Assembly: GCA_038234975.1 (NCBI GenBank)
Contig: JBBSUK010000003.1
Span: 1,678 to 65,677, forward strand
DNA length: 64,000 nucleotides
Source of the DNA: Burkholderiales bacterium
Lineage (GTDB): Bacteria > Pseudomonadota > Gammaproteobacteria > Burkholderiales > Burkholderiaceae_C
Direction of reading: 5' to 3'
Positions 1 through 3,101 of this stretch are shown here, one piece after another. Position numbers and translations under genes: made by a program. How positions within the stretch are numbered: position 1 is the stretch's first letter; the number at the start of each line of letters is the position of its first letter. The notes under the pieces were generated by a model that was given only the letters and a program-made list of their open reading frames with translations, did not search any database and was not told the DNA's origin.

Positions 1-742
1 TGGCCAGCCGCGTCGCCAGCATCACCGTTCGCGCGCCGGTGTGTGCAGACGGCCGCTCGCGTTCGGTCGCCACTTCGTCGAGCAACGGCGGCAAGCGCCA
101 ACGCGAGATCAGCGAGCGCTGCAAGGTCTCGAGGTCGACGCCGAGCACGTCCTCCTGCACCGCTCGCGAACGCTGAGCCGGATCGCGCCGCTGCTGTCGG
201 GCCACCTCCAGGGCGAGATCCGGCGCCACGCACCAGACCAGAAGCTCGGCGAACTCGTGCAGCAGCGCAGCGGCGTGGATCATCGCCGCGTGCGGGTCGG
301 TGCGATGAACCGACAGCGCCAGTGCGAAGTCGGCGCCGCGCGCCGATCGCGCGACGACGGCGTCGAAGCCTGCTCGCGCGCCGTCGACCCGGTCGAGCAG
401 TGCTTCCACCGAAGGCTGCGGGCCGAAGGCGCGAAAGAAGGGCGAGATTCCGAGCATGACGATGGCCGCCGTCACGGTCTCCGCCGCCGTGACCACCCGA
501 CGTCCCCGGTGACCGGACTCGTACGCGAGCACCTTGAGCGTCATCAGCGGGTCGGCGCAGATCCAGTCGCCGAGCCGGTTCGCATCGACGTCGTCTTCGC
601 GGGCGCGCAACGCTTCCAGCTCGAGAGCCGTTCCGCCGAGGACGGGGATGTCCGTAGATTCGATCGTCGCGATCCACGCCTCGAGCGAGCGGCGCGTGGC
701 CGGAGCGGCTGACGAATCGGCGTCGGTGACGAGGTGGTGCAT
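1..742 (-). CDS. HDOD-domain protein (partial, runs off window start)
   Basis: Not in the ORF track. Manual minus-strand translation from ATG at 742 gives MHHLVTD...DIPVL...DPLMTLKVL...ETVTAAIVMLG...AALLHEFAELL...RWRLP, matching the HDOD pattern, and stays open to position 1. Confidence 0.85.
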   Translation of the reverse strand, partial: MHHLVTDADSSAAPATRRSLEAWIATIESTDIPVLGGTALELEALRAREDDVDANRLGDWICADPLMTLKVLAYESGHRGRRVVTAAETVTAAIVMLGISPFFRAFGPQPSVEALLDRVDGARAGFDAVVARSARGADFALALSVHRTDPHAAMIHAAALLHEFAELLVWCVAPDLALEVARQQRRDPAQRSRAVQEDVLGVDLETLQRSLISRWRLPPLLDEVATERERPSAHTGARTVMLATRLA

Positions 743-832
743 GCGATCGCTCGGGAGCTTGACGACGGTATCGGCTTGTCGCGCGCCGTGCTTGAGCCTA
801 CTCTGACGACGCCACCTATGATCGATCGCACG

Positions 833-1696
833 ATGAGTGAGTACACGGCGATGCCGAACGGCGCCTGGAGATGGCCGCGGATCGGGCTCGGCACCTGGCG
901 CATGGGCGAGGCGCCGGCTCGCCGAAGCGCAGAGGTCGCTGCCATGCGAGCGGCGGTCGAGATGGGCTATCGGTTGATCGACACGGCGGAAATGTACGGC
1001 GATGGCGGCGCGGAATCCATAGTCGGCGAGGCCCTGCGAGACGTCATTGCCTCGGGAACGATCCGTCGCGACGACATCGTCATCGTCAGCAAGGTATACC
1101 CGCATCACGCCAGCCGCGAGGGCGTCGTCGCCGCGTGTCGCCGTAGCCTCGACCGGCTCGGACTCGAGCAGCTCGACGCCTATCTGCTGCATTGGCCGGG
1201 CACGGTGCCGCTGGCCGAAACGGTCGCCGGCTTCGAGGCACTCCGCACGAGCGGCGCGATCCGCGACTGGGGCGTCAGCAACTTCGACGTCGCCGACCTC
1301 GAGCAGCTGATCGCGGTGGACGGTGGAGCCGAGTGCGCCGTCAACCAGATCTACTACTCGCTCGGTGCCCGCGCGCCGGCGTTCGATCTGCTGCCGTGGC
1401 ATGCAGCACACCGCATCGCGACGATGGCGTACTCGCCGCTCGACCAAGGCAGATTGCCGCGACACGCCGCCGTGCGGGCCATCGCGGCGAGGAAAGGGTG
1501 CGACCCCGCCCATGTCGCGATCGCCTGGCTCGTGCGTCAGGCCGGGGTCGTGGCGATTCCGAAGTCGGTGTCGGTGGAACGACTGCGCTCCAACCTCGCG
1601 ACCACCGATGCCGCAACCCTCGATGCTGCCGACCTTGCAGAGCTCGACGCGGCGTTCGCGCCGCCGACCAGCAAGCAACCGCTCGCCATGATCTGA
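833..1696 (+). CDS. Aldo/keto reductase
   Basis: GLGTW, IDTAEMYGDG, SKVYP, LLHWPG, GVSNF, AYSPL and IPKS motifs. Start 833 or 851 rather than 734. Confidence 0.92.
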   Translation: MSEYTAMPNGAWRWPRIGLGTWRMGEAPARRSAEVAAMRAAVEMGYRLIDTAEMYGDGGAESIVGEALRDVIASGTIRRDDIVIVSKVYPHHASREGVVAACRRSLDRLGLEQLDAYLLHWPGTVPLAETVAGFEALRTSGAIRDWGVSNFDVADLEQLIAVDGGAECAVNQIYYSLGARAPAFDLLPWHAAHRIATMAYSPLDQGRLPRHAAVRAIAARKGCDPAHVAIAWLVRQAGVVAIPKSVSVERLRSNLATTDAATLDAADLAELDAAFAPPTSKQPLAMI

Positions 1697-1742: not shown

Positions 1743-1994
1743 TCAAAGGCGACTCACGCTCGACAACCAGCCGACGAACTCGCCGTCGACGAAGAGCGCG
1801 CCTTCGGGCGCTCCGGCCTCGGCGTGAAATTCGACCCGTGGGTCGAGGACCTGGCGGTCGGGGACGGCAACCAGCCGCGCCGCGAACGCCGCGAGCGCGC
1901 GGCTCGCGCCGTGCAGCAGCACGGCAGCCAGGTGCCTGGCCGTTTGCGACTCGGAGCCGCGAGGGCTCCACAACATCTGCTTCGAGTGAACCAC
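1743..1994 (-). CDS. Small hypothetical protein (83 aa)
   Basis: AAGGAGA RBS 6 nt before a GTG. 3' part of track ORF 1743..2261; ends ...GALFVDGEFVGWLSSVSRL. Confidence 0.65.
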   Translation of the reverse strand: MVHSKQMLWSPRGSESQTARHLAAVLLHGASRALAAFAARLVAVPDRQVLDPRVEFHAEAGAPEGALFVDGEFVGWLSSVSRL

Positions 1995-2038
1995 GATGGT
2001 TCTCCTTGTGATGATCGAAGCGACGAACGCTTCGAAAT

Positions 2039-2200
2039 TCAGTGCGGATCGTTCTTCATGTCGCGCACTTCGCCTGCCGTGGCGCGGGCCAGGCGCAGGC
2101 GAACGGCGCCGGTGGACCGGCGATGCGAGCCGGCCTTGCGAAGCCGGGCCGCCGCGACGAGCGGATTGCGCGGACGCACGGGTTGAAGGGTGATCTTCAT
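2039..2200 (-). CDS. Small basic protein (53 aa), MKITLQPVRPRNPLVAAARLRKAGSH...
   Basis: Strong AAAGGAG RBS before the ATG at 2200. Arg/Lys-rich. 3' part of track ORF 2039..2332. Confidence 0.7.
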   Translation of the reverse strand: MKITLQPVRPRNPLVAAARLRKAGSHRRSTGAVRLRLARATAGEVRDMKNDPH

Positions 2201-2228
2201 GAGGAGGCTCCTTTCGAAAGTCGAGCAC

Positions 2229-2272
2229 AGAAAACAGAACGGCCCGGGTGCTGTTGCGCAACCCGGGCCGTG
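2229..2272 (-). terminator. Intrinsic terminator (putative attenuator) upstream of the 53-aa ORF
   Basis: 11-bp inverted repeat ACGGCCCGGGT...ACCCGGGCCGT followed on the minus strand by TCTGTTTTCTG. Confidence 0.75.
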
Positions 2273-2306
2273 GCGGAGACGTCGTCGAACGACGTTTCGC
2301 GTGGCG

Positions 2307-2432
2307 CTATCCGGGCGGCGCTCCATCGGCACCGATGCACATCCATGCGGCGACGCTGCCTGCGGGCAGGCGCGGTGCGTGAGGGATGACAGGGGTGCAG
2401 CGGGACATCGGGATGACCAGGGGTTCCAACAT
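2307..2432 (-). CDS. Putative leader peptide (41 aa; alternative start 2408)
   Basis: Manual translation MLEPLVIPMSRCTPVIPHAPRLPAGSVAAWMCIGADGAPPG*. Lies between a promoter-like sequence and the terminator. Confidence 0.5.
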   Translation of the reverse strand: MLEPLVIPMSRCTPVIPHAPRLPAGSVAAWMCIGADGAPPG

Positions 2433-2477: not shown

Positions 2478-2507
2478 ATGATAAATGACCCTTTACCTGC
2501 CGCGCAA
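2478..2507 (-). promoter_or_regulatory. Sigma70-like promoter
   Basis: TTGCGC-N18-TATCAT on the minus strand, in an AT-richer patch. Confidence 0.5.
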
Positions 2508-2567: not shown

Positions 2568-3092
2568 CTAGCGCTTGCGCCCGAGCTTGAGCGGTGCGAC
2601 GGCCGACCGCGTCTTCGACCACAGGCGCTCGTCGTCAGACGGCGCGATCGATGCGCCATCGGAGGTTGGCTCGTGTTGCGGGCGCAGGGCTTCTCCGATC
2701 AGCTCGAGGAGCCGCGCCCGCGCCCGCGACGGCTCGCGCCGGTAGTAGCTCAGGACGAGACCGACGATGAATCGTTCATCGTCATCGGAAGGTCCGTCCG
2801 CCGTGGGTAGAAGGGTGGCTCTCGCGTCGTCGTGAGGCGCGTCGAGCCAGCCTGGGGGTCGGCCGCAGCGTTGCTCGAACTGACGCGCGAGCCGGTCGCC
2901 GATCTGCCGCGAGCGCGACTTGATCTGGCTCCAGTAGCTCGGCTGGATGAGCAGCTTCTCGGCGAAGAGACCGTCGAGCCCGCGCAGAGGCGACGCTTCG
3001 GGATTCTTGACCGTGGCGCGGATGAACGCATGGAACAAGGCGGTCGCGTTCTCGTAGCGGATCTGCGCCAGACCGGCAGCGCCACTCGTCAT
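2568..3092 (-). CDS. XRE/CI-like helix-turn-helix regulator
   Basis: FAEKLLIQPSYWSQIK...IGDRLARQFEQRCGRPPGWLD resembles the N-terminus of phage repressors. No recognisable S24 peptidase domain. Confidence 0.7.
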   Translation of the reverse strand: MTSGAAGLAQIRYENATALFHAFIRATVKNPEASPLRGLDGLFAEKLLIQPSYWSQIKSRSRQIGDRLARQFEQRCGRPPGWLDAPHDDARATLLPTADGPSDDDERFIVGLVLSYYRREPSRARARLLELIGEALRPQHEPTSDGASIAPSDDERLWSKTRSAVAPLKLGRKR

Positions 3093-3101
3093 GAACAAAG
3101 A

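Follow-up and report, generated by a model that had tools for sequence, protein, structure and literature searches.

A family of small basic proteins in Betaproteobacteria and the predicted polyproline leader-peptide attenuator that precedes one of its members

Coupling of gene expression to the state of translation takes several forms in bacteria. The ribosome-rescue factor ArfA occupies the empty mRNA channel with a KGKGS-type motif in its C-terminal tail, and its synthesis uses a non-stop mRNA: a hairpin, an RNase III site or a terminator is located inside its open reading frame (ORF). Pausing of ribosomes on proline-rich stretches is another such form; the tetrapeptide APPG joins APP and PPG, both of which are established EF-P-dependent pause motifs. 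Polyproline pausing upstream of intrinsic terminators leads to more termination when EF-P is missing (PMC5021804). A short conserved upstream ORF (uORF) followed by an intrinsic terminator is the design of trp/his-type attenuators, of proline-codon leaders such as Salmonella mgtL/mgtP, and of the EF-P-sensitive terminators just mentioned. In Betaproteobacteria ArfA is a rare factor, present in 37 of 1000 genomes (PMC11633108). Small proteins are often overlooked or left as 'hypothetical'.

The DNA analysed here (the window) is a stretch of 64,000 nucleotides from a Burkholderiales bacterium. An earlier note on it had proposed that a 53-codon gene near its start, hereafter small53, encodes a ribosome- or RNA-binding stress factor, perhaps of the ArfA, BrfA or ArfT kind. 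The gene, its family, its neighbourhood and its leader are described below and compared with these systems.

The small53 gene and its protein family

The small53 gene occupies positions 2039..2200 on the minus strand, with an ATG at 2200, 53 codons and a TGA at 2041..2039, and its translation is MKITLQPVRPRNPLVAAARLRKAGSHRRSTGAVRLRLARATAGEVRDMKNDPH. A Shine-Dalgarno sequence, AAAGGAG, is located at 2208..2214 (minus strand), 7 nt 5′ of the ATG, which agrees with the strong ribosome-binding site (RBS) reported earlier; relatives of small53 keep GAAGGAG at this position. The features that the earlier note had read from the protein also hold. It is rich in Arg and Lys (13 of 53 residues), with a pI of 12.0 and a net charge of +10, both equal to the family medians, and it is a polycation with neither a hydrophobic nor an acidic core. 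Its RPRNPLV and RKAGSH motifs are both present and constitute the conserved core of a protein family, P10 R11 N12 P13 x V15 ... R21 x A23 G24 x H26 ... R34.

Homologues with a conserved reading frame were found at several levels of divergence. In 13 congeneric genomes the gene is full-length and shares frame, start region and length with small53, and one additional congeneric copy is truncated. A word-indexed search gave 16 proteins of 52-57 residues, small53 included, that have in common MKITL...PRNPLVAAAR.R.AGSHR...RQ...ALRREL. An exhaustive profile search covering 1.84 billion representatives extended the family to 857 clusters at E<=1e-3, of which 126 reach E<=1e-10; almost without exception they have 50-70 residues and align end to end. 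Across 73 diverse members, nine positions are invariant (R11, N12, P13, V15, R21, A23, G24, H26 and R34) and two more, P10 and L41, nearly so. Orthologues within the genus have a median dN/dS of 0.30-0.33. As judged from these alignments, small53 is a genuine gene, not a chance ORF, and is under purifying selection.

The distribution of the family was followed in two ways. In named genomes, 80 loci matched a degenerate DNA pattern written for the core of small53; almost all of these loci yield ORFs of 50-70 residues, and all but one are labelled Betaproteobacteria. Carriers include Roseateles, Paucibacter, Pelomonas, Mitsuaria, Ideonella, Rubrivivax, Aquabacterium, Methylibium, Rhizobacter, Leptothrix, Ramlibacter, Polaromonas, Hylemonella, Curvibacter, Zoogloea, Propionivibrio and Accumulibacter, as well as Thiobacillaceae and Oxalobacteraceae. 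Of 397 high-quality genomes sampled evenly across the order, 65 carry small53, in almost every case only once; at genus level the count is 42 of 177. Such a patchy presence (16% of genomes, 24% of genera) means that the family is accessory; as far as sampled, it is confined to Betaproteobacteria. Searches of plasmid and phage collections with tblastn did not find it.

Searches for known relatives gave little. In Pfam, small53 (E<=1) and 38 relatives (E<=0.1) returned only isolated chance-level matches, and in NCBIfam and PHROGs, searched with small53 and 39-73 family members, nothing rose above that level. Profile searches of the PDB with the family found no significant relative, the single, non-significant match being the Smr helix of MutS2, and Foldseek comparison of the predicted structure with the PDB gave 0 matches. 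Identity with a core small ribosomal protein was considered and rejected, given profile similarities of less than 1% probability (hhalign against bL27, bL28, bL32-36, bS21, Sra and RMF); moreover, a family found in only about 16% of the order's genomes (65 of 397 good ones) is not a core ribosomal protein. With hundreds of clusters and nine invariant residues and no Pfam, NCBIfam or PHROGs model, the small53 family merits a database model whatever its function proves to be.

The structure predicted by AF2 from the 73-sequence alignment (mean pLDDT 78.8) contains only two helices. An extended N-terminus, holding the invariant PRNP-x-V motif, is followed by a short helix (residues 13-19), a basic loop, RKAGSHRRSTG, that carries the R-x-AG-x-H-R element, and a long, amphipathic, Arg-rich helix (residues 30-49). 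Since the protein has no hydrophobic core, this predicted layout of extended and Arg-rich helical segments suggests that small53 uses a polyanionic partner on which to fold and through which to act. The partner would most likely be RNA, either the ribosome or a structured mRNA; judged by composition alone, binding of small53 to the ribosome or to RNA is plausible.

Gene neighbourhood and the window's own copy

Two classes of small53 loci can be distinguished. Class A belongs to the window's taxonomic family and comprises the genus itself and, among the 80 named loci, about 44. Here up176, an intergenic region of about 350 nt, small53, g83 and a gene for an HDOD protein follow each other on one strand. 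In the window, up176 (2568..3098, minus strand) encodes 176 residues with an XRE/CI-like helix-turn-helix that was identified by eye (...SYWSQIKSRSRQIGDRLARQFE...GWLD); Pfam and NCBIfam contain no model that matches it, and it is syntenic with small53 in about 40 loci. The second gene of the operon, g83 (1743..1994, minus strand), encodes 83 residues from a GTG start preceded by the RBS AAGGAGA. Its family numbers at least 146 clusters, all annotated as 'hypothetical', and has no Pfam or PDB relative. AF2 predicts for g83 a single long helix and a C-terminal beta-hairpin. The C-terminal motif, EFHAEAGAPEGAL-x-VDG...V-x-RL, is absolutely invariant; neither its 13-residue part, EFHAEAGAPEGAL, nor PRNPLV of small53 gave a match in a full-text literature search. 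The g83 family is limited to the window's taxonomic family and is always located directly downstream of small53, as in each of the 4 genomes of the order (among 401) that carry it. In many relatives the HDOD gene comes directly next. In the window it runs off the start (2..742, minus strand), and a convergent aldo/keto reductase gene (734..1696, plus strand) lies between g83 and HDOD, an insertion also present in most congeners.

A hairpin, UCGAAGCG-UUCGU-CGCUUCGA (2015..2035, minus strand), begins 4 nt past the small53 stop. It was seen in 11 of 12 loci (the genus and the Ideonella locus L021), with differing sequences, and is absent in most other genera. The hairpin is stable and has no U-tract, and its sequence differences between loci are compensatory changes. 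Processing or stabilisation at this element may set the ratio of small53 to g83.

In class B, which comprises the loci of other families, small53 occurs by itself at the end of unrelated operons, and it often abuts or overlaps the stop codon of the gene before it. The upstream neighbours encode an EamA transporter, RnfE, HslU (of HslVU), methylglyoxal synthase (MgsA), EngB or PMM/LemA; each is specific to its lineage, and no common theme was found among them. The abutting or overlapping arrangement, with EamA, RnfE, HslU, MgsA or EngB upstream, was observed at loci L041, L045, L064, L065, L030, L048, L050, L077, L080, L026, L075, L070, L081 and L022. This overlap suggests translational coupling of small53 to housekeeping operons.

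The contrast between the two classes bears on what kind of unit small53 is. The strict synteny of the four genes, in about 44 loci from about 10 genera, and the presence of HDOD, a signalling-associated domain by its Pfam name, would fit a lineage-specific signalling module of XRE-like regulator, small53, g83 and HDOD, in which small53 is a protein- or DNA-binding part unconnected to translation, for example a nucleoid- or regulator-associated polycation. This is an unlikely reading, if one to be taken seriously, as small53 is far more widespread than the module (67 genomes, versus 4 for g83, among 401) and occurs in other families without up176, g83 or HDOD. Because small53 is found alone outside the window's family while g83 is always beside small53, small53 appears to be an old, self-sufficient unit and the cluster a later addition. 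On the evidence of gene order, its function is independent of its neighbours.

The window's own copy shows a different aspect of the family. It is without Gln35 and Leu41, both near-invariant, and in codons 35-52, which encode the C-terminal helix, dN/dS is 0.73 here versus 0.26 among congeners. In the closest relative (locus L016, G031:C172), in which g83 is 89% and up176 82% identical to the window's genes, a clean in-frame deletion of 81 bp removes residues 20-46 of small53. The deletion allele keeps the RBS, start, stop and downstream hairpin, and g83 is intact. L016 is thus a natural near-knockout of small53. In this sublineage small53 may be under relaxed constraint, and either dispensable or decaying. 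Tolerance of so large a loss by an allele that preserves start, stop, RBS and hairpin, together with the fast evolution of the C-terminal half in the window, is also what would be expected if the small53 ORF had no trans-acting product and served only in cis, for instance in translational coupling to g83 or in the stability of g83 mRNA. Conservation at the level of residues over hundreds of clusters, the nine invariant positions, a dN/dS of about 0.3 and the presence of small53 in genomes that have no g83 speak against such a role, to which we give hardly any credence.

The leader ahead of small53

Transcription of small53 would start from a sigma-70-like promoter, TTGCGC-N18-TATCAT (2478..2507, minus strand), of which the TTTATCAT block is invariant in all aligned relatives. 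A simple consensus scan for promoters and terminators flagged neither this promoter, because its −35 element matches the consensus at only 3 of 6 positions, nor the terminator described below. The TATCAT −10 element is common to the up176 and small53 promoters. Between the promoter and small53 lies a leader of about 265 nt.

The leader contains a uORF (2307..2432, minus strand) of 41 codons, or 33 from its second ATG, which ends in ...GADGAPPG-TAG with the APPG codons at 2321..2310; the peptide encoded in the window is MLEPLVIPMSRCTPVIPHAPRLPAGSVAAWMCIGADGAPPG, followed by the stop. Congeners have a leader uORF of 35 codons ending in GAxGAPPG, with TGA, TAG and TAA all used at the same stop position and with synonymous changes inside the GAxGAPPG stretch, e.g. 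GGT/GGC and CCG/CCA. In other genera (at least 14 loci), APPG is kept and is followed by 0-11 variable codons, giving peptides that end, for example, in ...GAPPGAGVR, ...AAPPGAAAG or ...EAPPGRPPR. As APPG is kept while the tails vary, the conserved element of the uORF is the APPG motif.

Two hairpins can be read downstream of the uORF. The first, ACGUCGUUCGACGACGU (2279..2295, minus strand), is small and separates the stop of the uORF from the terminator; the sequence varies among relatives (e.g. GUCUCGAAAGAGAC), and alignments inspected by eye allow a hairpin at this position in each, while a consensus fold of the leader left this stretch unpaired. The second is an intrinsic-terminator-like element (2228..2271, minus strand) consisting of the stem-loop ACGGCCCGGGUUGCGCAACAGCACCCGGGCCGU (2271..2239) and then UCUGUUUUCUG. 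Neither the 10-bp GC stem nor the loop varies within the genus, and a U-rich tract follows; the GGCCCGG/CCGGGCC arms recur in other genera, and the computed energy of the hairpin in relatives is mostly about -21 to -31 kcal/mol. The gene is thus placed as the earlier note had it, first behind a putative attenuator and directly after this GC-rich hairpin and U-tract (2271..2228).

Computed folds link the uORF to the terminator. When the transcript is folded up to the terminator loop, the APPG codons, GCGCCGCCCGG, are base-paired in the minimum free energy (MFE) structure with CCGGGUUGCGC, the stretch that supplies the terminator's 5′ arm and loop. When the footprint of a ribosome is masked on Pro-Pro-Gly or on Gly-stop, the terminator forms again in the computed fold. 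The MFE structure of the full-length leader contains the terminator in every case tried, so any antitermination would be kinetic. When about 200 leader windows were ranked as partners of the terminator 5′ arm, the APPG window took a rank of 0-5 in 14 of 26 class A loci, and the APPG:terminator pairing has co-varying extensions, e.g. GGUGC:GCACC in L046, L061 and L069. No Rfam family matches the leader, the only hit being a sub-threshold match to Xoo5 elsewhere, and a second copy of the leader was not found in the window's genome. Taken as predicted from conservation and folding, with a conserved uORF, an intrinsic terminator and an overlapping antiterminator, the small53 leader is a leader-peptide attenuator. 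Since class A transcription of small53 passes through it, expression of small53 would be tied to translation of the leader. The earlier suggestion that expression depends on the state of translation therefore stands for class A; it does not extend to most family members, which belong to class B and have no such leader.

A mechanism can be proposed on this basis. As the first cistron of a small53-g83 operon, small53 would be read from the sigma-70-like promoter through the leader, in which a peptide of 35-41 codons would present the APPG pause motif to the ribosome. The terminator lies just ahead of the small53 RBS, and its 5′ arm and loop are predicted to pair with the APPG codons. A ribosome on APPG would therefore mask the antiterminator strand and favour termination, and read-through would be favoured when the APPG segment is free. 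The direction of control is provisional: a pause at APPG may switch the operon off, and it may be switched on when ribosomes do not get as far as APPG or are released quickly.

The invariance of the terminator stem and loop across the genus also admits an explanation in which small53 is itself the regulator. An arginine-rich peptide with a long, Arg-rich helix, as predicted for small53, could bind to the 5′ arm and loop of the terminator, the conserved hairpin of its own leader, and so alter termination, in the manner of ribosomal-protein autoregulators or of ARM peptides of the lambda N type, with g83, which always adjoins small53 and whose C-terminal 35 residues carry a net negative charge (median -3), as its acidic-tailed partner or antagonist. 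Autoregulation of this kind is improbable. Most of the family (class B) lacks such a leader and lies directly behind unrelated genes, comparison of the small53 family with lambda N by hhalign gave a probability of 0.5%, and invariance of the loop in one genus may stem from short divergence time alone.

The reading that we tentatively prefer, and that we hold at slightly below an even chance, is that small53 is a polycation of a new family, probably binding RNA or the ribosome, which in this lineage is made depending on translation of its leader. A bolder version, which we consider doubtful, is that small53 is the first of a new class of ribosome-binding translation-stress factors in Betaproteobacteria, unrelated to ArfA. 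Its synthesis would be switched by whether ribosomes arrive at the APPG checkpoint and dwell there, and it would act directly on ribosomes, e.g. paused or uncoupled ones.

Ribosome rescue and other known systems

The closest parallel drawn earlier was with the rescue factors ArfA, BrfA and ArfT. On non-stop ribosomes, a factor of this kind would bind in the vacant mRNA channel and bring in a release factor, and several properties of small53 are in line with it: its size, its charge and its missing core resemble those of ArfA, its expression is predicted to be coupled to leader translation, and the Pfam ArfA family (PF03889) is absent from 41 genomes (the window's and those of 40 relatives), in a class where ArfA is rare (PMC11633108). 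The profile of ArfA itself gives no support. PF03889 matched neither small53 (E<=1) nor 39 family members (E<=0.1), and alignment with E. coli ArfA by hhalign reached a probability of 0.08-0.2%. As the earlier note had itself pointed out, the KGKGS motif is absent from small53, and it is absent from the family consensus as well. For BrfA and ArfT, which were covered by the general searches of Pfam, NCBIfam and PDB, nothing was returned for small53.

The non-stop logic of ArfA is not found either. The in-frame stop of small53 is conserved and the neighbouring hairpin lies beyond it, 4 nt outside the ORF; with its own conserved stop, small53 is not made from a non-stop mRNA. An ArfA-like processing site had been considered for the hairpin at 2015..2035 and was rejected, the hairpin being outside the ORF and specific to the genus.

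The genome of the window also encodes a typical ArfB, with a GGQ motif and a basic C-terminal tail (G000 contig C99:8429-8836, locus L144). Two class-I release factors are present in this genome besides ArfB. Across the order, ArfB is found in 253 of 401 genomes, and a hand cross-tabulation places it in 36 of 67 small53-positive and 217 of 334 small53-negative genomes. The resulting odds ratio of 0.63 (chi-square about 3) is a weak negative trend, short of significance and confounded by phylogeny, so a complementary distribution of small53 and ArfB is not established. Membership of the ArfA, BrfA or ArfT families, or a mechanism like theirs, is thus not supported by these comparisons, and the claim that small53 is a rescue factor of this type has become very unlikely.

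What the preferred reading of small53, an RNA- or ribosome-binding polycation, would mean depends on its partner. If small53 binds ribosomes or RNA, it would be a new lineage-specific translation factor in Betaproteobacteria, where canonical ArfA is rare. If it binds neither, the attenuator would still be a compact natural reporter of polyproline translation or EF-P function.

Several known systems can be set beside small53. In the Smr domain of MutS2 (PDB 2zqe), the HGxG helix is the only PDB sequence match, with H-R-x-S-x-G-A-x-R-Q-x-A-x-x-A-L-R-R aligning with HGKGTGALRQAIREALRR. This match spans 19-20 residues with a non-significant E of 0.45-0.66; the remainder of the Smr fold is missing in small53, and Pfam Smr is not matched. 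Small ribosome-associated polycations (bL34, bL35, bL36, bS21, Sra and RMF) are like small53 in length, in charge and in the predicted lack of an independent fold, but the hhalign probabilities given above, all below 1%, set them apart. ArfA is likewise short, very basic and devoid of a hydrophobic core, is patchy in Proteobacteria and depends on translation events for its expression; small53 differs from it in having no sequence relation, no KGKGS motif and a stop codon of its own, and in co-existing with ArfB.

The leader of small53 comes closest to the known attenuators. With trp/his-type attenuators, the proline-codon leaders and the EF-P-sensitive terminators (PMC5021804) it shares the short conserved uORF and the intrinsic terminator; as in known attenuators, the predicted alternative pairing overlaps the uORF, and the sensing element would be a polyproline pause motif. 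It differs from them in that the genes behind it encode two proteins with no assigned function, and in that the pause motif itself would encode the antiterminator strand. With polyproline pause codons doubling as antiterminator, the small53 leader would be an unusually explicit translation sensor in one lineage.
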